DNA of 63,437 nucleotides, the filler included, from Folioceros fuciformis (taxonomy: Eukaryota), in the NCBI GenBank assembly GCA_049999805.1. It is 7 parts of 7 records of this genome, joined end to end, with 100 filler letters (N's around TTAATTAATTAA, not from the genome) between each part and the next. Parts side by side here need not be neighbours in the genome. Positions count along the whole stretch, not along the records: positions 49,757 to 60,912 come from JBNGIO010005436.1; 6 more parts are not named here. The stretch is one strand, 5' to 3'. Shown here in pieces: positions 15,501 through 62,143 of the stretch; position 1 is the stretch's first letter, and the number at the start of each line of letters is the position of its first letter. The notes under the pieces were generated by a model, which saw only the letters and a program-made list of their open reading frames with translations, did no database searches and was not told the DNA's origin. Made by a program: the position numbers and the translations under genes.

Positions 15501-16405
15501 ATCTTTTCACTCAAATCTCTCCTCGTTGTGGCAGCTCAAAGTTTCAAGATCTGTCCAACTTGATGGGGGCTATGTATGCTGCCATATTGTTTATTGGAAT
15601 AAACAATGCCGGATCAGTGCAGCCAGTTGTATCTGTTGAGAGATCCGTCTTTTACCGCGAACGTGCGGCCGGGATGTATTCTGCATTGCCTTATGCTTTT
15701 GGCCAAGTAAGAAACCGATTTTCTGTTGGATTGTATCTGAGATGTCGCAGACATCTTCTCGAACTGACACGTCGCATTTTCGGGATACAGGTGGTTATTG
15801 AACTGCCATATGTGTTTGTTCAGACAGTGGTCTATTGCGCGGTTCTCTACTCCATGATCCAATTCGAGTGGACCGCACCCAAATTCTTTTACTTCATCTT
15901 TTTCAGCTATTTCACGTTTTTGTACTTTACCCTATATGGGATGATGACCGTCTCCTTCACGCCCAACCTACCAGTGGCCACTATCGTGTCATCCGCCTTC
16001 TATGGAGTGTGGAACCTGTTTGCAGGGTTTATGATCCAGCGTCCTGTAAGTGGAGTTCTTTGTTTGCATCACCAATTGATGCTTCTGATGATGTCCATAG
16101 TGGGCTGAAATTGTTCCTGTGTTGTGGGACAGCAAATCCCTGTGTGGTGGCAGTGGTATTATTGGGCCACACCTGTGGCGTGGTCAATATATGGTTTGAT
16201 CACTTCTCAGTTGGGTGACGTTAACAGCACCTTAGTACTGGCGGACGGTATCACCACCCAGACGATGAAAGAATTTCTGAAGCACAACCTGGGGTTCGAG
16301 TACGGTTTCTTAGGTTGGGTGGTACTGGCGCATGTGGGATACGTAGTTGTGTTCGCTTTTGTCTTTGCCTTCAGCATCAAGGTCTTCAACTTTCAAAGGC
16401 GATGA
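9573..16405 (+). CDS. Full-size ABCG / PDR transporter, copy 2 (tandem paralog, multi-exon)
   Basis: Same domain order and essentially the same intron positions as copy 1: [51 protein letters not shown]; ends VFNFQRR* at 16405. Confidence 0.96.
13565..13645 (+). repeat. 3 x 27-bp coding tandem repeat ([27 protein letters not shown]) in the PDR2 linker
   Basis: aggtcgtccaattctgcttcatcccag and two variants, in frame within an exon. Confidence 0.9.
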
Positions 16406-16669: not shown

Positions 16670-17728
16670 CTAATTCTCCACAGCTTCCACAACGCCAAGA
16701 CGCTGCGACTCTGGAAGCACAGACCAATTTGGGGACTGCGTGGAGCGAAGCCAGCGGAAGTCATCTACTTTTTCCCAAAGCCCCGTCTCCTCATTCAAGT
16801 TGCAAGCCTCCAATTGCCTCTCCACACCCTTGTAGTGGAATGCGTACGGCGCAAATCTTACGCCACGAGTATGTTCCACCACAGGCCTGCTCCTGACCCG
16901 GACATAAAAATCCGAGTCGTTCGTTGAATGAATTCGTATCTGGTGCGAAGCCAACATTAACACACTCCTCTCGACTTCCTCGATTAAAACGGAGCCGCTA
17001 ACGGGACCGGCAAAGATCTGGCAGTCCGTAAGTCTGTGGATGAAGAGCGCCCGGCATGTGCCTCTAAGCTCTACCCTGCAACTGGTCAGGTCTGTGATCA
17101 AGAACTCGCCCAGACCTAATTCCTCAGACTCCTTCACGACCACCTTGTGAGACAAATGGCGGATCCCTGGCACATTGCTGAGCTGTGAATGGCAGCCGGC
17201 AGGTTCCGAGGCGAGAACGGCCGCGGAGGCAGAGGCTTCCCGGCCAATGGCAGGCTTGCTGGAGGCCGGCTTGTTCCGAAACGAGAACTTCTTCCTAGGC
17301 ACCAGCTCCGACAGCGCAAGCCCGGCCTCATCCTTCAGCCTGCCAATGGTCGTGTGGGACGCCCTGACATCGTAGGCCGGCAGGTAGAACGAGGATGTGG
17401 CCAGCAACTGCTCCATCTCCCCGATCTCCAGCATCAACTTGTGCAGCTGGTCCTTGAGCAGCGTCCCATCCGCCCCGGCCTCCTTCACCTCCCGCGCCGC
17501 TACCAAGCCCTGCTCCACCCGCTCCCGGATCTGCCCGAACACACGGTCGAAGTGCTCCACGGTCTCCTGCGTCTCGGGGCTTGCGGCCGACCTGCGGTTT
17601 GCCGCTTCCTGCACGCGGGACTCGTGCAGCAGAGCCAGGCGGCCCAGCATGGCCTGCTGGCGCCGCTCCTGCGAGGCCACATCGCTGCCTGCGCCACTCT
17701 CCGTGAAAGTGAGCACTACGTCGGCCAT
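16670..17728 (-). CDS. TBCC: Tubulin-folding cofactor C (POR/TFC-C ortholog), intronless, 352 aa
   Basis: N-terminal helical TBCC_N region (..SSFYLPAYDVR..LVPRKKFSFR) and C-terminal C-CAP/TBCC beta-helix (GPVSGSVLIE, LASHQIRIH, DFYVRVRSRPVVE, FAPY, WEKVDDFRWLR..SPNW). Confidence 0.93.
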   Translation of the reverse strand: MADVVLTFTESGAGSDVASQERRQQAMLGRLALLHESRVQEAANRRSAASPETQETVEHFDRVFGQIRERVEQGLVAAREVKEAGADGTLLKDQLHKLMLEIGEMEQLLATSSFYLPAYDVRASHTTIGRLKDEAGLALSELVPRKKFSFRNKPASSKPAIGREASASAAVLASEPAGCHSQLSNVPGIRHLSHKVVVKESEELGLGEFLITDLTSCRVELRGTCRALFIHRLTDCQIFAGPVSGSVLIEEVERSVLMLASHQIRIHSTNDSDFYVRVRSRPVVEHTRGVRFAPYAFHYKGVERQLEACNLNEETGLWEKVDDFRWLRSTQSPNWSVLPESQRLGVVEAVEN

Positions 17729-18230
17729 GTCGCGCGCTAACTCTCCGCCCTAAACTCCAGAGACAAGCTGTAACCGACACCTACCCACCACATTCCATTA
17801 GACCTCAGTCGAAAACGCCTTCAATTCTCTGAAGCCAAAGGTCTTGCAAGGATGGAGTGGATGATAGGGATCCTCTTTGTTGGTGGATTGTTAGGGCGGT
17901 TTCGCGTAAGCCCGGACCCGGACCTGGGCTACGCTACACGACGAAACGCGAATTATCCTGCCACCAGAAAAGTAGCCGGGGTCGGGTTTGTAGGATACTG
18001 GTTACGTTGTTAGCCAGGGGTACGCCTATGGAGATACCTCTAAAAGGGCGGACATCTACCAGGCATATGCCATTCCATTGGTCAGTGATGAGCTATGCCT
18101 TCCTAGAACTTTAGTCTCCTTACATAGACTAGCAATCAGTACCCCTTACATAGACTAGCAATCAATACTTCTAAATGCATAAGGTCCCAGATCAGTGATA
18201 TGTTACTTGATCACTTTCCCACAATTGTGA

Positions 18231-21200
18231 TGTTGTGGCTAGGAACTCGTGGTGGGATTGGTAGGGTGGAGTGCCTTCAGTTAGTTGTTGACGTTGTATC
18301 ACTCCTTTGGTCCTTTGGGTTGTATCACTCCTTTGGTCCTTTGAGTCCCGTAGCCACAATGCAGTATCACGTGGTGCACAGAAAACAAAACACACACATC
18401 TCGTTGAGTCAACGAGACACAAGGTTGCTAGACTGACTCCAAAGCACAATCCATAGATGGAGATTACACCTGATGGTACGACAGGATCTAGCAGCAGAGA
18501 CAAGCGTATAGGCCCCTGCTAGAGACAAGCGTATAGGCCCTTTGCTTGGCCCTGGTTACGAAGTCCAAGGCTTTATACCACATCTCGCTAGTCTAGATAT
18601 TCCACGATATAGCTTCGGAAACCCCTCTCCTCCTCTCAATACAAAATATCTTATTGTCCTACTCTTTGTGGCTCCTAAGGTCTTCCTTCCTGATCGCCTC
18701 TTGCATCACTGAATGGGCATCTAGCATCCTTCCCTTAGTGGCTTTTCCTTCAGCTGGCACACCCACGGTCGTGTGCCACGCCCTGCTATCCCCTTGATAT
18801 GTTGCTAAGGTTGAATGGTCGTCTTCCATACTATGGTATCTTGGATCTTCAGTGGAAGAATCATATCTCTCTATCTTCCGATCGTTTCCCCTACCGACAC
18901 TTACTTCAAACAAGCTAGCAAAGGATTTTACTAGCCTATTTGTCTCACCGTCTTCCTCACCACTCTCCCGCTCTTCACGAGTGTCCCACTCAGATTGCCT
19001 TAAGACCTGCCATGATGTTTCACACTCGTTGGTCCATCTCCAGAAAGGAAGATCCTTTCGTAGCATGGTGAGGAAGAGCGACACTAGCTCCCACCACTTC
19101 TCATACTCCTGACTCCACTCCGACCTGAGTTCCTCAAAGATGCTAGCAATACAATCAACTCACCATGATTAGTAGGCCGAGTATCTAGACAAGGGCTATT
19201 ACTAACCAACCCTAGGGCCTCTAACCCTGCAGAGACTTGATGGAGCCATAGGTGGTTCCTCATTGCGTCGAAGCTCTCATTGCAAGCCTTCGTCCATTCG
19301 AAGTTGCAAGACTGGGCTAAGGATATCAGAGGTGGCCTAAGTTCCTCCAGGCTTTCTATACGACACCAACAATGGTGTCTTTCGCAATAACGAACCCACA
19401 GATCCACCTCCTTCCTAGTTCTAGGTCTTTGCAGTGCCTGTGGGTCATAAGGGATTCACAGCACGCCTGAAGCCATATTCAGCCTCACTGCCTCTCTTCT
19501 ATGGGGATCCCTCAATGTGGCCGCCTTCTATATGCTCTCACCAACAACTTAAATAGTAGCCCTATCCTAAAAATACCAAACGCTCACAACCACACAGTCC
19601 TACCTAACTTATCCAATCATAATAACGTAGACACCCTCAAGGTTAGATGCACTCCCCCTCCCTCTAGTCACAGACGTCATAACCTTCTTCCCTCCCTCTC
19701 CTACATATAATCTCAAAGAGCAAAGTCAGATGCCTTATCTGGTTAGGTAGGAGCATCTACCTACTTAACTCAGGCAAAGAACTTCTTCAGGTAGCTAAGA
19801 CTCGCTACCTCCTCCTGAGTCGTGAAATCTGGTGGTAAGAGTATCTTGGCAGCACCTTTAGCGAAGACCTCCTGTAGTAAGAAGGGTCCTTCCCATTGTG
19901 GCTTGAGTTTATACCCTGGCTCCTTCATGTAACGCCAGACGTTAAGCTTCAGGACCCAATCTCCACGTTCTAATGTAGACAACTTCCTCCCTTCATCCAG
20001 GATCTCTTTTCGTCTCTTCTTACTGTGTTCTTCCCTTTGGAAGGCCACCCTTCTCACCTCCTCTAGCTCATTTAGCTCAAGTGCCCGCTCCTCAAGTTGA
20101 ACTCCTCCAGCAATGATGGCGCTTGTGATTCCGAATCCAACAGTGGTTGTCTCCACTTGGGAAGGTACTCTGGCGGGTGCTCCATACACCAGATCAAATG
20201 GGGATAAACCCGAAATGGCCTTGGTTTGGGTCCTGATAGCCCATAGTGCCCAGGAAGGTGGGCATCCCACCTTTGGGGTTCTGCCTCATAGAGCTTAGCC
20301 AACACCTTAATAGCTACCTTGTTGGTGCTTTCTTCCTGTCCGTTAGTAATTGGGTGGTAGGGTGTAGCTAACCTGTGCTTGACCGAGTAGGCTCGGGTCA
20401 CCCCTTCCATCATGTTGTTTGCAAACTCCCGTCCTTGGTCACTTACTATCTCTACTGGGCATCCAAACCTAGTGATCACATTTGAGTATAGGAAATGTCC
20501 AGTGAGCTCTTCTGATAATGATGGTAAAGCCTGTGCTTCAATCCACTTTGTCGCATAATCAGTAGCTATTAAGATATACCTGTTCCCATGAAGAGAGACA
20601 AGTGCCAAGGGTCTAATGTAGTCCAACCCCCACTTGACAAACGGACTGGTTGGGAAGATTGGATTGAGCAAACCTTGCTTCAAGGAAACTGTGGCGTACC
20701 TTTGGCAACTATAATAGTGTTGACAATAGGCACGGACATCTTTGAACATGTTGGGCCAGTAGTAACTAGCGCGCAGAATCTTCTTTGCTGTTGCGACTGC
20801 ATCGAAATGGCCTCCACAGACTAAATCATGCATCTCAAACAAAATGCGAGGAATTTGTTGGCCCCACACACACATCCTAAGTATTCTATTTGGCCCAGTC
20901 TTAAACAGCCTCCCTTCCACCACTGCATAATCCTTGGACCACTTAGCTATCTTCTTACCATAACCAGGTGGTTCCTCAGGTAGCTTCCCGCTGGTGATGA
21001 AATCTGTAATCTGTCCATATAATGTAGCCAGGTCCTCAACCTGAACAGCTAGGGTGGTCAGCTCCCCTTCTCCTTCGAAACATTGGATGTTAAAGATTGC
21101 TGCTTCAACATAGCTTTTCACATCCCTCTCTGGTTTGACCGGGAAAACTAAGGTGTCAGAGTGTATATAGTTTACACACCTTAAGAGAGTAGCTATACCT

Positions 21201-21478
21201 TCGATGGCTACTAAATCTCCTTCAAGCTTCTCCCTTCCAACATAGGACTTCAGTCCAGCCCGGAGGACTGTTATCACAAGAAGGTTGTTGGAGAAAATGG
21301 TAACATGGAGTGCTCCACATCTTGTTGCTTCTACCAGCCCTTCCTTGACAGCCTGCATCACTAGCAACTTTGGGTGAGACCTGTTGACTAACTTAGATAC
21401 CAAGGCTACCTCCTTATCATCTAGTCCTAGCATCAGGGATGCAAAACCAGCGCCACGGGTTATTGATGAGGCAGTATC
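18231..21478 (-). mobile_element. Ty3/gypsy LTR retrotransposon 3' half (non-chromovirus, Tat/Athila-like): degenerate RNase H, integrase, 3' extra ORF, probable PPT/LTR; cut by scaffold end
   Basis: 20072..21433 ORF: RNase H-like segment (D.ASS..GAG..; VTIFSNNLLV), zinc finger H..GGH..C..C, PFVKWGLDY, IATDYATKW, SDQGREF, YHPITNGQ. Frameshifted continuation 19770..20270 (SPFDLVYG, KLKPQWEGPF). Purine tract at ~18622-18637 on the minus strand; LTR limits uncertain. Confidence 0.88.
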
Positions 21479-21578
21479 NNNNNNNNNNNNNNNNNNNNNN
21501 NNNNNNNNNNNNNNNNNNNNNNTTAATTAATTAANNNNNNNNNNNNNNNNNNNNNNNNNNNNNNNNNNNNNNNNNNNN
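21479..21578. other. Artificial scaffold-concatenation linker (N44-TTAATTAATTAA-N44, stops in all six frames); also at 33691-33790, 43198-43297, 49657-49756, 60913-61012, 62044-62143
   Basis: Identical 100-nt structure occurs six times, with abrupt sequence changes on either side. Confidence 0.97.
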
Positions 21579-33690: not shown

Positions 33691-34362
33691 NNNNNNNNNN
33701 NNNNNNNNNNNNNNNNNNNNNNNNNNNNNNNNNNTTAATTAATTAANNNNNNNNNNNNNNNNNNNNNNNNNNNNNNNNNNNNNNNNNNNNGTATTTTATA
33801 TTATTAGCTAGCAATTATGATTGTACTTAGTATTAAATATTTATATTTTTTTATTATTAACTAGCATCATGTCTATTGAGAGTGATAGCTTATATAATAA
33901 GGGTAATAGTGGGTCAAATGTTTTCATCCAACTTATGTGCCAAGATCAAGTCTCCCAAGTTGTAAGACTCTAAGACCTTGAATTTGGGCCCTACCACAAA
34001 ATAACATATACCTCTTTAAATTCAAGCCTTATTCAAGGCCATTAGCGGGAGGCACATGGAACACTTANNNNNNNNNNNNNNNNNNNNNNNNNNNNNNNNN
34101 NNNNNNNNNNNNNNNNNNNNNNNNNNNNNNNNNNNNNNNNNNNNNNNNNNNNNNNNNNNNNNNNNNNCAAGTATGGTTACCATGCAGCTCGCAACTAAAT
34201 TGTCGTGAAGAGTTGTCGAGAAGGAAATGCACAGAAGACTACTTTCTTGAGATATGCTATCTAGGGGAAGACTTGTGGGAAGAGAACTTCTCAATGCAAT
34301 GGAAACAAGGCTTGTGAGCTTGGGCACTCAAAAGTGTATTTAATTTGTGGATCTCGTAATCT

Positions 34363-35131: not shown

Positions 35132-36348
35132 AGTAACAACGTTGGTTTGAGTGCCAAGCAAGTAAGCTCCATGCANNNNNNNNNNNNNNNNNNNNNNNNN
35201 NNNNNNNNNNNNNNNNNNNNNNNNNNNNNNNNNNNNNNNNNNNNNNNNNNNNNNNNNNNNNNNNNNNNNNNNNNNTCAATGTTGGGGATAAAGTTTGGGT
35301 GAAACTAAAGCATTTCACACTACCCCAAGGATTGTCTTTAAAGTTGAGACCAAAGTATGGATGTCCATATGTTGTCTTGAAGCGCATTGGAGAAGTGGCT
35401 TACAAGTTGGACTTGCCTGATTGGATTTTTGCACACAATGTGTTTCATGTATCTATGTTGAAACCATTTGTGCTAGGCAAAGAGAAAGAAGACATGGACA
35501 GGAAGAAGTACAGTATCCTGGTGCAGCATGATCAAGGATTGCGGGAGATTGAGGAATTCCTTGCAGAAGGTAGCGTGGCTACGAGACGTGGAACTCTACC
35601 TCAGTATATGGTAAAGTTGCGTGGGATCTCAACACCAGTTTGGATAACATTGGAGGATATCCAGAGAGGCTCCTGGATGATTGCTCGTTACACTGGTTAT
35701 CACTGAGGACAATGATTTTTTCCTAGTGGGGGAGGAAGTAACAACGTTGGTTTGAGTGCCAAGCAAGTAAGCTCCATGCAAAGGCATGTTTAGCAGAGCA
35801 AGTTACTAAGAGAGCATGAGAAGCATGCAGCCCTAGGAAAAAGTGTGTGGTAGTGAATAATAGCTTAAGGCTTAAGTAAGTGCTTAAGTAAGTAGTTGCT
35901 AAGTTAGTGACTTGAGCTTGTGTATAAAAAGGGACCTAGCCAAGGGCTAAAAAAGTTCAGTACAGTGGAGTTGAGATGAGTATCTCCTCAAAGCCTTGAG
36001 AGCACGGGGTTGTTGCTTGGGCTATGCCTTGAGAGCATGTGTTGCTTGGGCTGTGAGAGCACATGAAAGGTGCTGTGAAAGAGCTGTGGGAGGAGGTCAA
36101 GAGAAGGGAGAGCTAAACTCCTAGCTTAGGCAAAGATGGGGAGTTCTCTCTAGCCCTCCAGCTCTGTATGTTCTTGTTGACTCGTGATTTGAATAAAGAG
36201 CAGCAGCAAGGGTGCTGGCTGCGAGTCCTCCTGTGAGAGGAGGGCGGGCTACTTGGAGGCCTAGTGCTGTGTCCGGTGTTTAAACCTGACCCCTGCTTTG
36301 GCTTCTAACTGCGTGGTTCTGCCCCACCTCGTTGAAGGGGGTGTTACT
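35132..36348 (+). mobile_element. Chromovirus-type Ty3/gypsy element (interior collapsed in an N gap) with AG...CT LTR termini and ATAGA TSD
   Basis: 5' LTR starts agtaacaacg at 35132; integrase C-terminus (KLRPKYGCPY, AYKLDLP, HNVFHVSMLKPF) plus a chromodomain-like tail, stop at 35706; PPT gggggagga 35728-35736; 3' LTR 35737-36348; TSD 35127-35131 and 36349-36353. Confidence 0.9.
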
Positions 36349-42845: not shown

Positions 42846-43298
42846 GCCTGCACGATTTCGACCGACTTACAATTCCCCGTACACTCTGGCAAGACTACTC
42901 GGGAGGAAGACGGTACCCGGCCGAGCCATTGTACACGTCCTCTTGCTCACCCACCATTCGGAATAACCCTAGAAATGAAGTCCCGCGCTCTCCATTTCCA
43001 CACTCAACCTCACAACCTCTCCTGAGCTGGTTATAGTAAGGGCTGTTGAAGCACCTTCTTGTCCCCCATACCTCCACCGCCTTTCTGGCACCGACACCCC
43101 CAACTCTCCACCCGCGATCAGACCACGGCAGCCCCGGCACCTACCTCAAGCCCCCTCCAAGCTCCCCCGACACCAATTCCATCCACTCCTACTCCTANNN
43201 NNNNNNNNNNNNNNNNNNNNNNNNNNNNNNNNNNNNNNNNNTTAATTAATTAANNNNNNNNNNNNNNNNNNNNNNNNNNNNNNNNNNNNNNNNNNNNT

Positions 43299-44016
43299 GA
43301 AGGCGGATCCGCAGTTTCCCTTCAAGGTTCTGACGGAGGAGGTGATTGGAGTAGGAGCTTGCGTGCTGGGAGACATGGCATCGCGACCGAACTTCGGGCT
43401 GGATGAGCTCGACTTTGTCTTCTCTACTGTTGTGGTGGGAATGATTCTTAACTTCACTTTGATGTATATGCTGGCTCCGACTTCGTTGGTTGGCGCTGCT
43501 GTCTCGTCCCGTCTGCCGGGATTTTTTGCTTCCTGTCCCCCTGGGCACATGTTCGAGGCCGGGGCGTACTCTTTCGTTGACAGGTTGGGGACCTTCATCT
43601 ACAAGGGGATGCAGTTTGCCGCGGTGGGATTTGTGGCCGGCTTGGCGGGGACTGCGCTCTCCAACACGCTGCTGGATATTAGGAAGAGGCTGGATCCTAA
43701 CTTCGTGCCGCAGAACGAGTCGCCGCCGACCATTCTGAATGCGGCCACCTGGGCTGGCCACATGGGGCTCAGCTCCAATCTGCGGTACCAGGCGGTGAAT
43801 GGAGTAGAGTTTGCTCTGGCTGGTGTTATGACTCCCGGTTTGTTCAAGTCCAGCGTGTTCATCATCAGAGCCGTAAATAATGTGCTTGGGGGGACGAGCT
43901 TTGTTTATCTCGCTCGGTTAACAGGGTCACAGAAGAGCGGGGTGGATGACAATTCCTCCCCGCCGCAGGTGGTTGAGGATGACAGCAAGAATGTTGAGGC
44001 TGTAGGTGCTAGTTAG
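43299..44016 (+). CDS. RETICULATA-related (RER2/RER3-like, DUF3411) plastid envelope protein, 5'-truncated by scaffold start
   Basis: ADPQFPFKVLTEEVIGVGACVLGDMASRPNFGLDELDFVFST, CPPGHMFEAGAYS, LNAATWAGHMGLSSNLRYQ, LARLTGSQK. Confidence 0.92.
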
Positions 44017-48087: not shown

Positions 48088-49756
48088 GATCCCCCCAATT
48101 TCAAACTTCGCAACGAAGCTCAGCGGCTGTCTTGTTCAAAACCGGTGGCGACTCTCTCACACATCTCATCCTCCATGGAGCACTTTCTACCGTTCCGGAT
48201 TCCGCGATTATCGCCAGAGGAAACAAACATAACTCAGGTTAAGGAGATGGGTTCTACAAAACGCAGCCATGTCCTGGGACGAGAAGGCGCAACGTAGACA
48301 TGGCTTTTGGCTCATGCTTTCATACCTTGGTCAATTTGTAAGGAAAGTCTAGTGGATCTTCTCCATCCCAACCATTCTCTTTGCGCTTGCTTTCTCACAG
48401 TGTATGCAAAGCTGCTGCTGCAAGTTTCATGCACAACAAGAGCCTATGAAAACGAACTGGTCTTGGATGGAAGGTGATAGTCATGTGACCACAACTCTCA
48501 TTTAAGTATACTAGAACAAAGGAATTAAGCCACACGAGTGCCTGATTAGGCCTGGCACTCTTGAGTCATTCCTAAGCCTTTGATCAATAGCTAAAGAAGA
48601 TTCACAAGTACCCACACTTTCATTCCCTTTGTCATCGAGACTCACGAGATCACAAAGATTTTCTCCACTTTTGTCAAAGGCTGTGCCAAGACAAGACCCA
48701 GGCCAGTGCTTCCCTTTCTCGTCGGATTGCTTTCCTTGGACGGAGGGTCGATGGCGAAGACGCCGTGAGCTTCGGAGATCTGGCTTCTTCTCACTGCCGG
48801 GTTGTTCATGTGGTCCCTAATTCTAGGGCGCCTGGTTCTACGTGGGGCAGTCCCCCTTAGCTGGGATTTCGGTCGTATTGCAGCAGTGGGATCGTAAGGC
48901 CCCCTTCACTGGGATAGCTCATCTCTGTATAAACATGTACAGCGTAATGAAGTCTCCATTGTTGAAGCAGCAGCAGGAGGAACAGCCCCGGCGGCTGCTG
49001 GTGCGAGAGGTATGACGGCCGGTTATGACCAAGCCAGTGATGCAAAATCGCGGGGTCGTGCGAAACCTGCCATATTAGGAAGGGGCAAGGGCTGGGCAGC
49101 CTGAGCTGTGTAGAGGTTGGCCTACATGTAGACCTAGACCTATGTATGCATGTATGTATGTATGTATACCTGTACCGGATGTGACGCATCCGAGGGCGAA
49201 ATAAGGGCATCAAGGGCGAAACAACAGCATCAAAAGCGCTCACGACTTTGGGCGTACAGTCGAGTACAGTATAGTATTTTCTTTTCATTTTGGCTTATGA
49301 CTGCATCCTCCCTCTTGCTTGAAGTGGAAGTGTTCTTTCTCCTAGTGGCTTCCCATCCCTCCCGTCCCTGGCCTTTCCTTCCTTTTCCCTTCCCTTCGCT
49401 TCCCTCCCCCTTTCCCTCGGTCGCCGTCCCGTGGCTCCGTAGGAAGGAAGCGCAATTCCCGGCACCCAGCCGTGTGAATGTGGAGCTCAGCACCTGCTTC
49501 CGTGCTTGGCCTGGGCTCGTAGATTGGGCGCCGCTCTCGCCTCCAGGAACACCAAGCTTGCTCTTACACTGTGCTTGGGATGAGGCGTGTGGTGGCACCT
49601 GGCATGCCAACCCAGCCTGGGCATAGCAGTACGAGCCCAGGCTTCTATTCTTGAGGNNNNNNNNNNNNNNNNNNNNNNNNNNNNNNNNNNNNNNNNNNNN
49701 TTAATTAATTAANNNNNNNNNNNNNNNNNNNNNNNNNNNNNNNNNNNNNNNNNNNN

Positions 49757-52114
49757 GCACATATACCGAGGCCATTACAGGACCTGATAAACATCACTGG
49801 CAGCCGTCCATTCAAGATGAATATTATTCACTCATCAAGAATTCCACTTGGGAGCTCTGTCCTCTTCCCGCAGGCAGAAAAGTTATTAGCTGCAAGTGGG
49901 TATTTAAACACAAACTTAACGCTGAAGGCCAGATTTCCAGACACAAGTCTCGCCTTGTTGCTCGTGGGTTTACTCAAATTCCTGGTGTGGATTTCACTGA
50001 AACCTTTAGTCCGGTTGTGAAAACCCAATCTATACGCATGATCATTGCTCTTGCTGCTGCCTATGAATGGGATCTTCAACAAATGGACGTCTGTACGGCA
50101 TTCCTGTGTGGCGAGTTAGAAGAGGATATTTACATGTAGCAGCCCGAGGGCTTTGCGGATCCTGAACACCCAGATTGGGTCTGTCGACTAAAGAAGACCA
50201 TCTACGGTTTAAAGCAGTTAGCACGGGAGTGGTATAAGGCCATCGACAAATACCTTAAGTCTATCGGCTTTATACAAAATCCTGGTGATGCTAATGTCTA
50301 CTTGTACTCCCAGAATGGTAAACTGGTGATTTTGGCGTTGTACGTCGATGATGCCATTCTGGCTTCAAACAACCCTGAACTTTTAGCTTGGGTAAAGCAG
50401 ATGCTGCACAGCAAATATGACATGAAAGACATCGGTCCACTTACTTTCGTTTTGGGGGTATAGTTGGTTCGTGAGCCAGCCTCTCGTACCATTTTTCTCC
50501 ATCAGGCTAAGTATATTGCAGAGACTCTTCGACGATTTCATCTTGATTCTTCGAAGCCTGTTTCTACTCCTGGCCCAGTTGGTGCTAAGCTCTCTTGCAA
50601 TCAGTGCCCTCAGACTGATGCAGATCGGCAAGCTATGTCTCCAGTGCCCTATCGCCATGCAGTTGGTTGTCTCAATTACATCAGCTGCTTGACTCGCCCG
50701 GACATCCAGTACTCGGTTAGTGTCGTTTCTCAATTTATGGACAATCCTGGAAAGGAGCACTGGGGTGCCGTTAAACGGATTTTGCGTTACCTGAAAGGCA
50801 CTCAACAGTATGGGCTCTGCTTCCGGGGGCNNNNNNNNNNNNNNNNNNNNNNNNNNNNNNNNNNNNNNNNNNNNNNNNNNNNNNNNNNNNNNNNNNNNNN
50901 NNNNNNNNNNNNNNNNNNNNNNNNNNNNNNGACGGAAGCGGAATACAAATCCTTGACCGAAGCAGCCAAGGAGGCCATTTGGGAACACAGTTTCCTCAGT
51001 GGTTTAGGGTTTCTGCCATCTCAGCCCACTGTGATCTCGTGTGACAATATGTCCACGATTGCTATGACTGCCAATCCGCGATTTCACGCGAGAACTAAGC
51101 ACATCGAGGTGCATCACCATTTTATTCGCNNNNNNNNNNNNNNNNNNNNNNNNNNNNNNNNNNNNNNNNNNNNNNNNNNNNNNNNNNNNNNNNNNNNNNN
51201 NNNNNNNNNNNNNNNNNNNNNNNNNNNNNGCCATCTCAACCCACTGTGATCTCGTGTGACAATATGTCCACGATTGCTATGACTACCAATCCGCGATTTC
51301 ATGCGAGAACTAAGCACATCGAGGTGCATCACCATTTTATTCGCCACTCTGTGCAAGAAAAGGAAGTACAAATTGAGTATATCCCTACAGAGGAGAATCC
51401 GGCTGATCTTCTCACAAAATTTCTGCCTTCCTCTCTACATGCATGACATATGGCTACTCTAGGAGTCACAGGTTTCTCTCTCGCGAGCTAAGTGATCCTT
51501 GGACAGCTGTGCGACTGCAGACTTTGGCGGATGAAGCTCTCCTTCAGATTGAATCGCCATCTTCCTGCAGTCCTCGGTGTTCTGCTGCACGTCTTGGAGT
51601 CTTCGGCAGCAGACATCCTGCTGCTTGCTTCAGCTGATGCTTCAGTTGGAGCTCTTCCACCGTTTTCTCAGCCCCTGCAATTCTGGTTTTACACTTCAGT
51701 GACAGCATGCACATCAACTGGATTTTCCATCCCGCTGCTGTCCATCTCTGCTCCATCGTGCACGTCTTCTCCACATTATGCTGTGCTTTGCGTCGCTCGT
51801 GCTGTGGTTATGTCGTGCCAGGCTGCGCATTCTTTCCCTGTTGCTGGTGAAGGATGTATATTGCGATTGCCAGGACGCACAGGTTCAGAATGACGAGGAG
51901 TGTTTCTCCCATTCTGCTCTCGCGTTTCCGTCGCTAACCTGGCCGATTCGCTCACAGGGGCGTGTTGGAAATTAAACCCCGTTAGGGTTAGCATTTCGTT
52001 TATGTCATAATTAAGCGAATAGCCACTTAGCGAATAGTTACGACGTTTCAGGAAAACACCTTAAAAACCCTTGTTGCAATTTCCTGAAAATTAATTAACC
52101 ATGTTCTTCCAAGA
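49757..52114 (+). mobile_element. Ty1/copia element A: RT-RNase H (premature stops), ~500-bp 3' region, PPT, ~152-bp 3' LTR
   Basis: KSRLVARGF, QMDVCTAFL, LYVDD, TEAEY, CDNMSTIA..HARTKHIEV, NPADLLTK; PPT aggggcg then tgttggaa (51963) ...ttccaaga (52114). Confidence 0.9.
51544..51912 (-). pseudogene. Antisense extra ORF of copia A (N-terminal TM helix plus helical region; internal TAA)
   Basis: ATG 51912: MGETLLVILNLCVLAIAIYILHQQQG..* (51808-51810), in frame with the 51544..51774 ORF. Confidence 0.6.
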
Positions 52115-54537
52115 ACTCTGACATAATGGAGGTCAACTTCACTACTGGACTAAAAAGTCTGGTTTCCTCGTAGTCAAAGCCAGGGATCTAAGTGAAGACT
52201 TTTGCAACGAGTCTGGCCCTATGTCTTGCTACTGCTACTGCTCCGTCTGGATTGAGTTTGCGCCTGAATGTCCACTTGCAGGAGATAGGTTTTCTTCCTT
52301 TCGGTAAGTCCACTAACTTCCACGTTTTGTTGCTCATTAAGGAGTCGTACTGTGATTGTACTGCAGCTGTCCATTCTGGTGAAGCAAGTGCCTCGTCTAT
52401 GGATAGGGGTACTCCCTGCATTTCAATGGCTGACAGTGCCTAGTGTGCAGCATCTTCCAAGTGGTCGGCTGTGAGGTTGAGAGATGGAGGATGCCTGGCG
52501 CTCCATGCGACCTGTGAGGGTATCACTAGGAGTGTATGGTGGCTCTTTCCATTCACTTCGTGTAGGTTTGTTTCTAGTGGATCTCCTGATAGCTTCTAGA
52601 GGTGCAGGCAGAGTGGGTTCGGGATGGTACACTTGGGGCATTATCTCCGGGGATGTAAACTCTGGGGTTTGGGAGTATGTAGATGATGTGGAGTGAGAGA
52701 GGTCTGGTTGCTGCTGTACAGGCTGCTAGGCTAGTGGTTGTTGGGTTGGTGGTGTAGGTTGTTGAAGTACTTCTTGCTTAGATCACCTTTTGAGTTTGCA
52801 GTGAGGTGATGTTGTCATCATAGTCTGTGGCCCCTTCAAACTCAAGGGGGGATTCAGTGGTAGGATGGCCAAAAATGCTAGGTGTAGGCAAGGGAGTGGA
52901 AGTGAGGGAAGACTGGAGGAGTGTGTTGAGAAAATGGGTTTCGTGGAAATGAACACTGCGGGAATGAATTACCTCTCGGGAGTGGGGATCAAAGAGCTGG
53001 TAGGCTTCGACTTGGTTGGAGTATCCTATGAACAACATCTTTTGACCTGTATCATCCCACTTCCTTAAGGTTTCTGCAGCAATATGGGCAAAGGCAGGAC
53101 TACCAAAAATACGGAGGTGGGATACCCTAGGTTTGTGGCCGCTCCACCTCTCGAATGGAGTAGTGCTGGGGAGTTCCTTAGTTGGAAGCCTGTTTTTCAG
53201 GTACGTGGAAGTGCACACAGCTTCTGTCCAGTATGCTTTTGTTAAGCCTGCGAGTTTGAGGAGAGACCTCGAGATTTCCAACAAGGAACGATTCAGTCGT
53301 TCAGCAAAAGGGTTTTGTGAGGGAGTATAAGGTACCATGTATTGTCATTGAATGCCCTTAGAGCGGCAAAATCTTTGGAAGGCATGGCTGATGTACTCAC
53401 CCCCGTTGTCTGTTCGCAGGGTGGTTACTTGAAAACCTGTTTGCCGCTCAGCAGTGAGAAGAAAGTCTTGGAAACATGAAAGGGCCTAGTCCTTTCGCTT
53501 CAAGAAGTAGACATGGCAATATCTGCTCCATTCGTCCAGGAAGGTAATGAAATAGCTGTGGCCTCCAAAGGAGTCGGTGCTCATGGGTCCACATATATTG
53601 GAGTGGATTGTCTCAAGCAGTCGTCTGGCACGGATAGGAGAAGGGTCTTTGAAAGGTGATTGGTTTAACTTGGTATACGGACATATCTCGCAGAAGAAGT
53701 CCTTGTGAACTTTGAGCTTGATAGGATCCTTATACATGGTGGGGTCTGCAAGCATGTTGAGGTATCTGGAGTTCATATGGCCTACACGGCAGTGCCATAA
53801 CAAGGACTTGTTTGAGGATGTTGGTGGACTACTATCTACCAGGAGTGATGTAGATTGGATGTTCAGGAGGTAAAGATCATTGAAGGGAAGTCCGTGAGCC
53901 AGGGCTATTTTGTCAAAGTCTTTGCTGTGACAGATGGTGCAGTGGTTTCCTTGGAACGTGATGGTGAGGTCATGTTCTGTGGCTAAGTTACGGATTGACA
54001 GCAAGTTCTTGGTCATTGCAGGTACGTGGAGGACTCCGTTGATGGTGAGGAGCTCTCCAGTAGAAAGACGCAATTGGACTTTTCATGAACCCTGAATGGG
54101 TAGTGCGCTATCGTCTCCTAAGAGGACGTGTTGGTAGGAGAGGATCGGGTGGTAGGAGGTAGACATGTCTTGACAGCTACATATGTGTGTGGTGGCTCCG
54201 GAGTCTAAGAACCAACGACATGTGTCTGTTCTGGTAAGGGTGAGGCAGACTGCTAAGATGGAATTGGCTTATAACGACTTTGGTAGTTGTGGTAAGGTGA
54301 GACTCGTTTCTGGGAGCTTCTCTGCGTGGCTTGCCTGCCTGCTTCTTTTGGCATTCACTTTTGTAGTGACCAAGATTTTTGCACTAGTTACATGCTCCTT
54401 TGGCTGATTTTTTGTCAAATGATCTGTTTTGTCAAATGATCGATTTGGGAAGCCCGAGAAGCTTGGAGAAGGTGGGCCTCTTCGGTTGGGGAAACCTCCT
54501 CGTCCTCCACCATGCCTATTTCCTCAACCTCTGGAAG
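52115..54537 (-). mobile_element. Ty1/copia element B fragment (gag C-terminus, protease, integrase, RT start), truncated by elements A and C
   Basis: WFLDSGATTH protease, LWHCRVGH GAG-pre-integrase, IHSNICGP, RTDNGGEY, YTPSQN..AERLNR, TWKLVDLPKGRKPISCKW. Confidence 0.9.
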
Positions 54538-57500
54538 TGAAGAGTGATGATACTTTCTATAAGTCCGAAGACACTCAAAAACAACATCTAAGGACTAGAT
54601 GCAAGAAAGCATATATAGAATAAAAGTATATATCAATAGTAACATGGTGTTGTTTTTATAGTCAAAGTATTGCTAACCCTATCAGTTCAATAACCGAGTT
54701 ATGTTAACCATACGTTACTTATGTAACCTCTAACACCCCCTCTTAACTTGACGAGGTTAAAGGAGAGTTTCTTAAACCCTAGTCCATCATAAACCCTCGC
54801 CCTTCCTCATGATGAGACGAGATGCAAGTATTAATGCAGCGTAAGCGGGAAAGCACGCAGGCGGCCTGTCTGTCGATCCAACTCAACCAAGAACCACATT
54901 AAGTCTCGGAGCTGATCAAGGATGGAGTTGTTTGCCTTTCCCTTTTGCCACACCAACGTTGTACACAGTTGCTACAGAAGTTGTCCTGAAACAAGCAACA
55001 ATGGCGCGTAGGAGGAACAGGGGCATAGGCTGTCAGAAGCATCCACGGGAGGAGTCATCACAACAGTAGAGTAACTCCTTTGAGCCTGGCGAGACACAAG
55101 CAGCAAAAGGGCCTACAAAGTGGCCAACGCAATCAAACAGGAACTTGGTGTGTTATCTCCTCCAGACAGTGAAGAAGTGTGAAGAAGCCGAGGAAGCGGT
55201 CAAGGCCGCAAAGTGTCAAGTCATGGATCCTCAGGATTGGATAGCCAAGTTTCCATCAAGAGATCCGACCATGTTTCCACTATTAGAATCTGAGATAAGG
55301 CACCTTCTGTAGGAACTGTCCATGCTTGGGTATACTGGTAAAGTCGGCGGCGGCTCTGAAGCTGACAACACCTAAAATACATATCCTCTTGAAAGAGGTA
55401 AGTCTTCTGGATCATTGTGTTGGTACAGAGGGCAACTCACGATTGTTTGTACATAGGTTGCTTCATCCACTGAGAACCCTCGTTTGTGCTCCTGGTAGGA
55501 AAATCTAGATGATGACCTATCACATGAAGCCTCCTACCAGACTAGCACAGCGTCTACTGAGAGTTGTTCTGAGTAGGCATAGTAAAAGCTTGCAGACCAA
55601 TAGAAGTTAGATGCTTGTAGTGCTTGATTTCGCAAGCCCTTTTGTTAAGAGGTCTGCAGTATTGTCATGTGTGTTTACATAATCCACTTTAGCAACTCCT
55701 CTCTTGGCCACATCCCTGATATAGTGATGGTAGAGCTCGGTGTGCTTAGTTCAAGCATGAAACCTCGGATTGGCCACAAGGGCGATAGCTGACTTGTTGT
55801 CACATAGTAGTGGAGTGGCTGTTGTTTGAGTCATGAAAATAGATTCTAGGAACTGTCTTTCCCACTCAATCTCCTTACATGCGTCTGTCAAAGCCTTGAA
55901 CTCAGCTTAAGTAGATGAAAGGGCAAGGGAGGATTGCTTTTTGCAGGACCGGTTGACAGTGCTAGAGGATATGAAGTAGACATAAGCAGAGAGACTTTTC
56001 CTGGAGTCTGAATCCGAAGCCCAATCGGCGTCCGCCAAAACTGTAAGAACACACTCCTTTTTACCACTAGCTGTATAATGCAAGCCAAGGTTGATGGTGC
56101 CTTTAAGGTAGCGATAGATCCGCTTTACTGTAGACCAGTGAGCTCTACCAAGAGTCTTCAAGAACTGGGCTACTACACTAACTGAGAAGCTAATGTTAGG
56201 CCTAGTCCAGTTAGCCAAGAAGATCAGGCACCCAACTACCTCTGCATAAGGGACAGAGACCATGTCCATTTCCTCCTCTGCAGACTTTGGGGATTGATCT
56301 GCAGTGAGTTTTTCACCAACAACAAAGGGAGTAGACATTGGCCGAGATTCATCAAGGTAAAAATGCTTTAAGATCTCCTTTAGGTATTTAGTTTGATGAA
56401 GAACTATGGTACCATTCTGTCTGTTTCTTAGAATCTGTATGCCCAAGCAGAACTGTAGAGGGCCTTGATTCGTCTTCTCAAATTCACTGCCCTGAAGAGC
56501 CTTAATAGTATTGAGCTGAGACACACTATTACTGAGGAGAATGGCATCATCAACGTACAAAGCCGGAATCACCAACGAGCCTGAGCCAGCTAAGTAAAAA
56601 ACATTTGTGTCTGCTGAGGATTGTAGGAAATGAGACTGAATCAGGAACTTTCTGATACGTTTGTACCATGCTCTCGGACTCTGTTTTAGGCCATAAATTG
56701 TCTTCAACAGTTTACAAACTTTATGAGGCCACTTCTGATTAACAAACCCTTCAGGTTGAACCATATACAGGGCCTTCTCAAGCTCTCCATGTAGAAAGGC
56801 TGTACAAACATCCATTTGGTGAAGCTCAAGATCGAACTCAACAGCAAGGGCAAGCAAGATTCGAACAGATGGTGGCTTGACCACAAGTGAGAATGTATCT
56901 CCAAAATCGACACCTGGAATCTGTGAGAATCCCCTAGCTACAAGTCTGCTCTTGTATCTAGATATAGTTCCATCAGCTTTAAGTTTGGTTTTAAAAACCC
57001 ATTTGCAAGTGATTGGCTTACGTCTAGGGGGAAGATATGCAAGTTCCCATGTGCCATTCTTCATCAACAAGTTGTACTCATCATCAATGGAGACTCTCCA
57101 GTGTTCAGCATCAGGTCCTAACAAAGCCTCTGAATAACTTTGTGGGTTTGGTCGAACATCAGGTACATGAAGATCTATTACATGCGCTCCATGTCTAAGA
57201 AAATCATGGGCCTAATATGGAGGTTCAAGCCAGTTGTCACAAGACCTACGCTCTTGCACTGGGTAGTGGAAAGGTTCAACTTCAGGGACTTCCACAAGAG
57301 CTACTTCATCAGGGTCAGTTAAGTGCTCCTCATTCACAACTTCCTGTAGAACCTCCTCTGCGGCCAAATCATCTGATCTGATTGAGTCTTTAGACTGAAC
57401 TAATCGAATGTCTTTGTCTTGGTTGGCAGGATCTATAACTGGTTGGGCATCCTGTGCATACAAATCATCAACTCCACATCGTCCAGCACCAAGTTCAGCC

Positions 57501-57759: not shown

Positions 57760-60700
57760 TGATCCAATCGATAGAGCATTGGTAGCTTGATAGCAGCGTA
57801 TGCCTGTGAATAGGAGGAATATGAAAAACATGAGCAATTAATTGAAACATGAAGTACCAAGAGTATTTATAGTATAATGTATTTAACCTAATTAACTAAG
57901 TATATTTAACCCGAGATGGTTATCTATTCAACACTCCCACTTAACCTCGACGGGTTAAAGTGAAAAGCTATTTATCCAGATCTTCTTCAGCAAACCCTAG
58001 GCTGTCACGGCGCTTCAAATTCCCTTTCCTTGCAATGAGTAGAGACATCAGTGAAAATCCTGTTGCATGGGTCGCCCTATCTCTCTTGTTGCTGGAAATT
58101 GCAGCCATTACCTTCCTTGCAACGCCATCAATCGTAAGGCTCATCATCAGCATGATCAAGTATGTGAGCGATAGGCTATCAAGCCAAAAGCAATTGGAGA
58201 GCAAAAGCCAAAGCCAGGAAGAAGAATTCTAGGGTTCAAGCAGTCCCAAGGCTTCACTGAAGATGTGGCCAACCACGGCGCACAAGCGCACGTTGTTGAA
58301 TCTGGCTAGGGCAGATGCTGAGTGCAGTAGATTGGAGAGGCTAATGGAGGAAGCCCAGGCTCGCACATCCCAACTCAAGGAACAGGCCGGGGCAGGAGTA
58401 GAGATGAGGGAGGACGACAGGCAGTTGACAGTGGACGAATACAAGGATCTGCTAAGGGAACTGTCTGCTCAAGGACTGTACACGCCAAGGGAAGAAGGAG
58501 GCGCGTGACTCTAGAGGTAACAATGTCCGTGATTCAAGTGATTCCATGTTCCAGGGTTAGATCAGTGTTTGGCTTCATCCTCTGAATGCATGGAAATTAA
58601 TTGCTTGTCTGGCCTATGTTGACTCCCACTGAAAGGGGAGAGTGTGCATGGGGAAAGCAGACAAAGCTGGATAGGTGATTGAAACAAACATGTGCCTGAA
58701 TGTATTGTATATGCAGGCAGGAGGAGACATGAAGGAGAAAACCACATAGTAGAAGCTAGAATTGTTTGGGATACTCTAGGTCTGCTTATCATGTAAGCTT
58801 TAGTGTTGTAGTAAAGTGTGATGAGAAATCTACAAGACCCAAGCCATCTACATGTGTCTGATGCTTGTGCTTGGGCAAGGACTTTGTGAGAATGTCAGCA
58901 ACATTAGAATCTATATGTATGTAAGTGGGCAGAACAATACCTCTGGATTTTACATCTCTAACGTAATGGTGCTAGATCTCAATGTGTTTGGTATGGGCGT
59001 GGAAGCGGGGACGCTCAACAAGGGCAAGAGCAGACTGATTGTCGCAAAAGAGGATGGTAGGTTCTGGCTGCACTGCATGGGCTAAAGCCAGAAAGGCCCT
59101 CTCCCACTCCACCTCTTTGGCAGCATCAGTTAAGCGTTTGTATTCTGCCTTTGTGCTTGACAGAGCTATACTTGTTTGTTTTTTATAGCTCCAACCAACA
59201 GCCGCGAAGGACAGAAGGAATGCTTAGGTCGAGAGGCTCTGACGTGAATTGCCATCAAATGCCCAGTCAGCATGAACGAAACCATGTAAGGTAGGGTGTG
59301 AACCTCCTCGCTTGTAACATAGGCCCAAATAATGTGTACCCTTGAGGTAACAGAATACCCATTTAACTGCTGTCCAATGATTTCTCCCAGGACATTCCAA
59401 GAAATGAGAAGCAGCGTTAACTGCAAACGTGATATCAGGACGTGTCCAATTGCTCACAAACAAGAGGCTTCCCACAGCATGTCTGTACGGGACATCCTTC
59501 ACATCTTCGATATTCATAGCTGAGGTGGGACTATCCAGTTTTGTGAGTCGCACACCAGTTGCTCCAGGTGTGGCAACAGGGTGAGCTGCGTCCATGTTGA
59601 ATTGTTGCAGAATTTCAGCAATGTATTTGTGTTGATGAATAATAATCATTCCTTGCTCTCTCACTCGCAGCACTTGAATGCCCAGGCAGAACTTCAACTC
59701 ACCAACATCAATCATTTCGAATTCATTACGTAACAAAGCTTGAACTTTTGCTACTAGCAGCTTGTCGTCGGCTACAAATATAGCATTGTCTACATATACT
59801 GCCAACAGCACATAGGAGGAGCCTTCATCATATATATAAACTGATGGAGCAGCGGGACTCTGTCGAAAACCAAGTGCACGCAGGCAAGTGTCTAGTCTAG
59901 CATTCCATCGTTCTGCAAATTGTCTCAAGCCATAAATACACTTGATTAACAGACAAACCCAATCTGGATGTGTAGGGTCCTCATAGCCCTCGGGCTGCTC
60001 CACGTACAACTCTTCCTCTAAGACACCATGTAAGAAAGCAGTCTTGACGTCCATTTGCTCAAGCTCCAAGTCATGTTCAGCTACTAGAGCAAGAATGAGG
60101 CGGATAGATTGGGATTTGACTACAGGGGAGAATGTCTCCTGAAAGTCTAGGCCTGGAATTTAGGTAAACCCCCGGGCACACAAACGAGCCTTATACCTAG
60201 CAATCTCCCCCTTAGAGTTAAGTTTGTGTTTGAAAACCCATTTCCAGGTAATGGGTCTGTGGCCTTCAGGACGGGGAACAAACTTCCAGGTACCATTTTG
60301 AATTAAGCTATTGTACTCATCTTCCACATTATATTTCCACTTATCCCTATCTGGGCTTGAGAAGGCTTCCTTGAGTGTGACAGGCTTAGGAGGAATAATT
60401 GGTGGGAAAACATGGGGGATAGTGGGAGTGCAGACTCCCACTGACTTGAGAAAATCAATGGATGTGTAACGAGGTTCTGTCCACTCAGAGGGAGGGCGAT
60501 ACACACGTGCAGACCGACAAGTAGGCTCAGGTGCATCCGCTGGTGGAACAGGTAATGGCTCATTGTCACCTGCAAAATCAGAGTCTTGGGAAGAATTGTC
60601 AGGTTCAGATGCTGAATCTAAGTGATTATCTAGAGTTGGGGCAGGATCTGCAACGGATTCATCATCTTGTGACTGGACAACTAGGTCAGCACCTCCATCA

Positions 60701-60912: not shown

Positions 60913-61312
60913 NNNNNNNNNNNNNNNNNNNNNNNNNNNNNNNNNNNNNNNNNNNNTTAATTAATTAANNNNNNNNNNNNNNNNNNNNNNNNNNNNNNNN
61001 NNNNNNNNNNNNTCTGTGGATAGTCTAAGAGGTGGTAGATCCTTGTGGTGGTAGGGCCAGAAGCTCATTGGTGGCAGGTTGTGCTAGAAGTCTAAATAAG
61101 TGGCTGGTGACAGCCGGCTGGCCTATTAAAATAATATTTCTCAAGTTAGAGAGAGGTGAAGTCAGAGAGAGAGAGAGGCTCCTATAAGATCAGGTGAGCC
61201 TGAAGGAAGAAGGAGTCATTCACTTTGGGAGTCAGTCTATCTCTTTGTGAGCTCTTGGAGGTCCTCTCTTCATGAGCTCTTGTGGTCTGTCCCTGCTTGG
61301 TTTAGGACCTGT

Positions 61313-61473: not shown

Positions 61474-62143
61474 AGGTGTAATGACCAGGGTGTAGGGGCT
61501 TGCCCCTAGCTCTTGATTGTAAAGGGTGTGTCTTTCTCTCGACCTGTCCACTCTTGTTCCTTGCTTGGTCAAGTGCTGTAGGCCGGCCATGTCTCATGGC
61601 GTCTGGTAAGGTTGTGGGGAGGAGATACCCAAGAGGGGAGTGTGTTCCCTTCTTCCTTTTGTTTGGGGTTAGTCTAGTGACTCTTGCCGGGTAGGAGGAG
61701 TCCGTAGGGAAGTGTAGAAGGTAGTGGTGTCGTTGCTGGTAGTTGTTGGTGTTGGTGTTGGTGCTGGAGCGAGAGAGTGAGTGAAGTGAGTGAAGGAAGT
61801 CGCAGATCTGAGAGGTTAGAGTCGTTGTAGTGACTGGAGTGAGTTTGTGGGCACCGAGAGAGGTGCAGCTGACCGCCGGACAGCGAGGCCTGTCCTACGC
61901 CTGATCGGAGCTGGAGGGGAGCCCTCGAATCCATCATCGAGTTGATCAAGTCCGACCCTCCATCCACAGCAGCAAGGAACCCCATCGCTCCTTCGTGGGA
62001 ACGAAACCCAATGTCTCAACGACAGTGGGATAAGTGTGGCCACNNNNNNNNNNNNNNNNNNNNNNNNNNNNNNNNNNNNNNNNNNNNTTAATTAATTAAN
62101 NNNNNNNNNNNNNNNNNNNNNNNNNNNNNNNNNNNNNNNNNNN

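Follow-up and report, generated by a model that had tools for sequence, protein, structure and literature searches.

A possible antisense accessory gene between pol and the 3' LTR of a nested plant Ty1/copia element

Element A and Its Surroundings

The window, meaning the whole 63,437-base stretch that was analysed here, is plant DNA made of stitched contigs, which are joined by six linkers of 44 N, TTAATTAATTAA, and another 44 N. Since the TTAATTAATTAA linkers place stops in all six frames, the window is to be read as a chain of unplaced contigs, in which the two flanks of a linker are not true neighbours. Host genes elsewhere in the window include exons of a PDR-type ABC transporter, TBCC, and a RETICULATA-related gene, and pieces of Ty3/gypsy integrases are also present. 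The antisense frame that is the subject of this report sits in the contig at 49757-60912, within the first of several copia elements, referred to here as elements A to D (Table 1).

Element A has the features of a Ty1/copia retrotransposon: (i) an RVT_2-type RT, followed by RNase H; (ii) a PPT; and (iii) an LTR with TG...CA ends. It is truncated at the contig edge (49757), its 5' half lying beyond that edge, and its pol contains two 100-N gaps. RVT_2 matches (E 4.5e-33 and 4.6e-24) cover 49840-50460, RNase H extends up to 51443, and the RT is 54% identical to that of element C and 48% identical to that of element D. A 115-base repeat with 97% identity (51015-51129 versus 51230-51344) flanks a 100-N gap in this region; it probably represents two haplotypes or an assembly overlap, with no real duplication. 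The 3' LTR opens with TGTTGG at 51963 and closes with ...GACA at 52123; from 52124 on, the sequence is that of the RT of a minus-strand copia, element B. Contigs of sequencing runs X2 and X3 that reach 52124 run on as uninterrupted B-type RT and are therefore empty sites, indicating that element A is a nested insertion in the RT of element B and that its 3' LTR is complete. In a blastn comparison of 51400-52300 with the window, only the region itself and three short chance matches were returned.

Table 1. Positions of the elements, frames, and other features in the window
Feature	Position	Strand	Basis
Element A pol, RT and RNase H part	49840..51443	+	RVT_2 matches, RT identity
Premature TGA in element A pol, window copy	51444..51446	+	Sense codon in X1/X2 contig
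Element A true pol stop, TAA	51489-51491	+	X1/X2 contig reading
Sense open frame, 133 codons, in pol frame behind single TAA	51492..51890	+	Translation
Element A antisense frame, 122 codons and stop, one internal TAA	51544..51912	-	Translation
Polar C-terminal 87 codons, low-confidence predicted helical	51547..51807	-	AF2, single sequence
In-frame TAA breaking the window copy	51808..51810	-	X1/X2 differ at its first letter
Hydrophobic segment ETLLVILNLCVLAIAIYIL, residues 3-21, putative signal-anchor/transmembrane helix	51850..51906	-	KD19
Element A PPT, short purine run directly before LTR	about 51954..51962	+	Read from sequence
Element A 3' LTR, 161 bases, TG...CA ends	51963..52123	+	Sequence
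Element B, copia: protease, integrase, RT start	54268-52124	-	
Element C: pol stop and LTR start	about 55607; about 54735	-	
Element C antisense frame, 155 codons stop to stop, one TAG	54845..55309	+	
Element D: pol stop and LTR start	about 58789; about 57933	-	
Element D antisense frame, 157 codons, one TAG (58230-58232)	58035..58505	+	
Linkers (44 N, TTAATTAATTAA, 44 N), first three	21479-21578, 33691-33790, 43198-43297		
Linkers (44 N, TTAATTAATTAA, 44 N), last three	49657-49756, 60913-61012, 62044-62143		
Host genes and Ty3/gypsy integrase pieces	12893-16108 (+), 16670-17749 (-), 43246-44016 (+), 20072-21526 (-), 35137-35706 (+)		

The Antisense Frame of Element A

On the strand opposite to pol, an ATG at 51912 opens 34 codons, MGETLLVILNLCVLAIAIYILHQQQGKNAQPGTT, with a run of 17 hydrophobic residues. 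Past the TAA, the same frame continues for 87 codons (...RWTAAGWKIQLMCMLSLKCKTRIAGAEKTVEELQLKHQLKQ...) until it reaches a stop at 51546-51544. The place of the frame, its ATG, and its single TAA had been given in a preliminary description of this DNA, and translation of the minus strand (122 codons, one stop) bears them out. The ATG lies ~42-50 bases from the purine run of element A and has an A at -3 and a G at +4. The spacer from the true pol stop to the PPT measures 458 bases, of which the frame covers 369, and the frame terminates 53 bases before that pol stop. An intron that would excise the TAA was considered and rejected, as no donor/acceptor pair spares the hydrophobic segment; such an intron is also needless, because a sister copy of the element (see below) does not have the stop.

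The most distinctive feature of the frame is its hydrophobic N-terminus. A single-pass membrane protein was defined by one stretch of ~19 residues with a KD of at least 1.6, and the antisense frame of element A contains such a stretch, with a KD19 of about 2.45 at residue 4. When the N-terminal stretch was shuffled 5000 times and read in three frames, no equally hydrophobic start appeared, and none was seen in 3000 shuffles of the spacer. The hydrophobic start is far beyond chance. A purine-rich sense strand near the PPT was examined as a source of this hydrophobicity and rejected, since the purine content is just 0.47-0.63 and the local shuffles argue against it. Segments with a KD19 this strong number 15 across the six frames of the window, those of elements A and D included, and several of these are inside real membrane-protein genes. 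The 87-codon tail, on the other hand, is polar, and AF2 run on the single sequence predicts helices at its residues 3-15, 25-35, 37-44, and 50-63, with a mean pLDDT of 48.8.

A Sister Copy with Sense Codons at Both Stops

A sister copy of this part of element A is represented by one contig in each of two DNA runs (X1 and X2) from a single study. The X1 contig (678 bases) spans 51314-51991 with 12 differences and no gaps, and the X2 contig (647 bases) spans 51314-51960 with 13 differences, also without gaps. Both carry a sense codon at the antisense TAA of the window. They also carry one at the premature TGA of pol, which extends pol by 15 codons to the true stop and gives it a typical copia C-terminus. 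These sense codons indicate that it is the window copy that has decayed. For the prediction that the antisense frame is kept open in other copies of the family, a single further copy could be compared, and it is open at the position of the window's TAA. Thirteen differences are listed, of which 11 belong to the X1 contig, one (51826) to X2 only, and one (51993) lies just beyond, in the LTR; since one difference per contig falls outside this list, another break in the X1/X2 antisense frame is possible.

The direction of the differences leads to the same reading. At 9 of the 13 listed positions the window has A and the contig has G, mostly at CG or CWG sites, a pattern that likewise marks the window copy as the decayed one. 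The one-sided differences over 51314-51993 look like methyl-cytosine decay on one strand, and the nonsense codons in the antisense frame and in pol are both transitions typical of methylated CG/CWG sites. Within the antisense frame, the listed differences comprise three non-synonymous changes, one exchange between stop and sense, and two synonymous changes; within the sense frame, they comprise four non-synonymous and two synonymous changes, and no stop. With n=6 in each case, these counts have no power either way, and no purifying selection can be seen in them. Over 51230-52600, run X3 departs from the window by 50 C>T changes and 69 G>A changes and resembles a bisulfite-type library. Run X4, presumed to be RNA, gave no contig over this stretch.

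Comparison with Elements D and C

Elements C and D are further copias on the minus strand, with pol-to-PPT spacers of about 850 bases each. Candidate junctions, read from the sequence, place the insertion of C in the gag region of B and that of D in the integrase region of C. In element D, the antisense frame opens with an ATG at 58035, roughly 100 bases in from the PPT. Its hydrophobic segment (58062-58118) has a KD19 of 2.33 at residue 10, which 6 of 5000 local shuffles equal, and a long helix after the TAG is predicted with a pLDDT of up to 98 (mean 79.7). The frames of A and D therefore agree, as had been proposed, in position, orientation, and architecture: an antisense ATG near the PPT, a hydrophobic segment, one stop, and a part predicted to be helical. 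In the antisense frame of element C, the first ATG comes late in the frame, and no hydrophobic segment was found (maximum KD19 1.09). The three frames have in common that each contains one in-frame stop, located in a polar, S/Q/E-rich linker before the helical part. The chance of two PPT-side hydrophobic segments in two of three elements is estimated at ~0.002 from the density of the 15 segments in the window, a figure that precedes any correction for post-hoc choice.

At the level of sequence, the frame of A is not detectably related to those of C and D. BLASTP between the antisense translations (A/C, A/D, and D/C) found no match, and blastn and tblastx among the three spacers detected only the region of the PPT and LTR start in D versus C (64% over 159 bases). 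In Smith-Waterman comparisons, the A-D, A-C, and D-C scores were equalled by 79, 590, and 3 of 1000 shuffles, respectively. The likeness between D and C, around a WPT...L...C...E stretch, is marginal. The preliminary description had noted a resemblance of A to C (W..LxCxL..AE..V), which the 590 shuffles scoring equally well show to be unreal, and a profile comparison of the C and D alignment with A by hhalign returned a probability of 0.3%. Of the suggestion that the antisense gene is a feature of the whole clade, the shared architecture of A and D stands, whereas homology (by BLASTP and hhalign) and a hydrophobic segment in C were not found. Common descent of the three frames may nevertheless be compatible with similarity that escapes detection, given that even the RTs of A, C, and D are merely 47-54% identical.

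Database Searches

Searches with the antisense proteins returned no homologues. For the element A protein, a word-based search yielded three candidates and no matches, and phmmer found none among 1,835,955,588 representatives at E<=0.001; for the element D protein, there were no matches among 162 candidates. No Pfam family was found at E<=0.01 for the 87-codon piece of element A. Viral contigs contained no copia relatives, whether the query was the RT of C alone or the C and D alignment. In the Atlas, the 87-residue piece of element A (recognition 1117) had no usable match. A 91-residue piece of element D (recognition 2126) was placed there with Mu Gp27-like small helical proteins at 0.93; this was judged to be a chance match, and the 166 shared features are under the 170 typical of true family members.

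A metagenome scan with the pattern of the element A frame gave 483 matches, which reduce to two loci, L001 (948-1103) and L002 (3001-3078). Both are GC-rich soil bacterial contigs; the last 11 residues of the protein that they encode also occur in the A frame, and their DNA differs from the A frame at synonymous sites. These loci were rejected, because ~1 such match is expected by chance in the collection and because a pattern search yields them by construction.

Coding Signals and Alternative Readings

Quite possibly, there is no gene on the antisense strand at all. The spacer would then be a non-coding, TA-depleted, and CAG/CTG-rich region whose frames are open by chance on both strands; its role, if any, would be in cis, through structure in the genomic RNA, or that of a template from which antisense or small RNAs are made, and the hydrophobic start would be a coincidence picked post hoc. 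The length of the antisense frame is indeed within chance for the composition of the spacer. When the dinucleotides of the 458-base spacer are shuffled, at least 87 open codons occur on the antisense strand in 754 of 2000 cases, and the one-stop length of 129 is reached on that strand in 447 of 2000 (129 open codons were found in 110 of 5000 mononucleotide shuffles). In the spacer, TA stands at 0.27 of expectation, the lowest value in the contig (0.22 for 51557-51856), and it is because of this depletion that both strands are open; the sense strand is equally so, with 133 codons in the pol frame. CWG sites number 26 per 300 bases, versus about 7-17 elsewhere, and CAG/CTG is the highest of the contig. 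The sense RNA of the spacer (51492-51962, +) also folds better than shuffled sequences (z -2.21, equalled by 2 of 100), although Rfam returned no matches to the spacer at E<=1. A non-coding spacer would likewise agree with the lack of homologues in the protein searches and of mutual similarity among A, C, and D. In addition, a hydrophobic 19-mer with a KD19 of 2.46 lies at 54330-54386 (+), antisense to the zinc-knuckle region of the gag of element B, and it shows that such stretches can occur by chance antisense to copia.

Several observations speak against chance alone. The hydrophobic segments of A and D, rare as they are in local shuffles, lie at matching positions and on matching strands, and the TAA that breaks the window copy is missing from the sister copy. 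The antisense region is also periodic in steps of three bases, with a chi-square of 25.2; this value is reached by 2 of 2000 shuffles and by a share of 0.062 of 916 windows, most of which are known coding regions; no tandem repeat that could cause it was found in the element A spacer. The plain correlation of each frame with the coding pattern (0.52 for antisense, 0.00 for sense) was set aside as a coding test, since 0.52 is reached by 25 of 38 non-coding-like windows and the measure is thus uninformative. Instead, a projection test was used, in which the codon-position composition of a frame is projected on the pattern of known coding regions. According to this test, the antisense frame ranks first of six in each of A, D, and C. 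The shuffles used for comparison were restricted to those in which some frame contains no more than one stop, and among them the observed projection is reached by 16 of 941 for A, 0 of 232 for D, and 9 of 115 for C. When the element A frame is divided into thirds, the projection is reached by 46, 651, and 85 of 2000 shuffles, respectively; the middle third, therefore, carries no coding signal. Codon-usage log-odds are about zero or below in all six frames. Taken together, the coding signal in the antisense frame is moderate.

The sense strand of the spacer was weighed as the coding strand, either as a C-terminal extension of pol made by read-through or as a separate small hydrophobic ORF in the position of env-like genes. 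From its ATG, this frame spans 51531-51893 and encodes 120 aa. It is unbroken, longer than the antisense frame, and in phase with pol, and it remains open in the X1/X2 contig. Of the dinucleotide shuffles, only 162 of 2000 reach its 133 codons, and of the mononucleotide shuffles, only 330 of 5000 do so; its KD19 is 1.85 near residue 14. However, its composition does not fit the coding pattern, as the correlation given above indicates, and its translation is rich in S, L, A, and C with few charges, as would be expected of the mirror image of a polar helical protein. There were also no matches to the sense frame (51492-51890) among 1130 longer candidate proteins, and nothing comparable is present on the sense strand of elements D and C. 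Coding by the sense strand is therefore improbable. Two separate products, a hydrophobic micropeptide of 34 residues and an ATG-started protein of 70 residues on either side of a genuine stop, would account for the single in-frame stop in the polar linker of A, D, and C alike, but they are scarcely credible for element A, where the stop is a copy-specific transition, missing from the X1/X2 contig, and lies beside a like mutation that breaks pol.

Discussion

Antisense ORFs between pol and the 3' LTR are known from Grande of maize (gene23), RIRE2 of rice, Retand of Silene, and PvRetro13 of Phaseolus (PMC7264820; PMC11963269). In the portions of these two papers drawn on here, the Retand lineage is described as Ty3/gypsy, with spacers that are kilobases long and antisense ORFs of >600 bases, and many of the encoded proteins, which are nuclear or bind DNA, carry a TRP28 (PF04195) or SMC domain (PMC7264820; PMC11963269). 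For the class called aORF-3R, the criterion is that every copy of a family, or the majority of copies, has the ORF in open form, and an antisense promoter of HTLV is mentioned in the same text (PMC7264820). With regard to size, a survey of eORFs counted only those of at least 250 codons (PMC6317226), whereas >600 bases is the limit in PMC11963269. Within Ty1/copia, the sense eORF of SIRE is the sole one named as characteristic in the part of the survey that was consulted (PMC6317226). Full-text searches of the literature brought up no paper with a title or abstract on a short antisense ORF for a membrane protein in copia.

Compared with the accounts of these classes in the cited texts, the frame of element A resembles aORF-3R and eORF-3'R in its place, after the stop of pol and before the PPT, in its orientation opposite to pol, and in having no similarity to known proteins, the class as a whole being fast-evolving and lineage-specific. 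At 122 codons in a 458-base spacer, it falls below the size limits given for such ORFs. Unlike the Retand and Grande proteins as they are described, it has no TRP28, SMC, or other Pfam domain and carries a putative membrane anchor, and its host element is a Ty1/copia rather than a member of the Ty3/gypsy Retand lineage.

Two other kinds of genes invite comparison. The env-like ORFs of SIRE (Ty1/copia) and Athila have a predicted membrane segment and helical regions. They are likewise extra ORFs located after pol, but they are on the sense strand and several hundred codons long, whereas the A frame is antisense and short. ASP of HIV-1 and HBZ of HTLV-1 are encoded opposite to gag-pol and transcribed from the 3' LTR inwards, and ASP is small and hydrophobic. 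The phmmer search found no sequence relation between them and the A frame (0 matches), and they belong to another host kingdom. LTR-driven transcription is known for ASP and HBZ; for the A frame, it would be assumed by analogy.

On balance, the frame of element A is tentatively interpreted as a real antisense accessory gene, which would encode a small, N-terminally anchored, helical protein and has been inactivated in this copy. A chance frame in a stop-poor, non-coding spacer is nearly as likely. As a gene remnant, the frame could, at about the same level of confidence as the gene itself, be grouped with the extra ORFs encoded opposite to pol in the stretch that precedes the 3' LTR, and the family of element A would, as part of this still provisional interpretation, be a low-copy Ty1/copia family. 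The intact form is 122 codons long, with one putative, strongly hydrophobic helix in the first 21 residues. Positive residues after this helix would orient the protein such that its N-terminus anchors it in an endomembrane, and the tail of ~100 residues, polar and probably helical, would be located in the cytosol. By analogy with retroviral antisense genes, transcription would begin within the 3' LTR and proceed inwards. At the membrane, the anchored tail could bind a component of the element or of the host, for instance during particle assembly or trafficking. The case is built on two elements and one sister copy, and should be regarded as a lead rather than as a result.

A wider reading, which is doubtful at present, would be that, in this plant species, a clade of Ty1/copia elements carries a fast-evolving antisense gene, directed inwards from the 3' LTR and encoding a small membrane-anchored helical protein. 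If true, this gene would be a plant-retrotransposon counterpart of the retroviral antisense proteins, and surveys would have missed it by leaving out extra ORFs shorter than 250 codons. A short, membrane-anchored antisense ORF in a compact copia would widen a class known from large Ty3/gypsy elements, would imply that accessory genes are hidden by the size limits of surveys, and would also provide a small, easily expressed protein for probing the accessory functions of retrotransposons.
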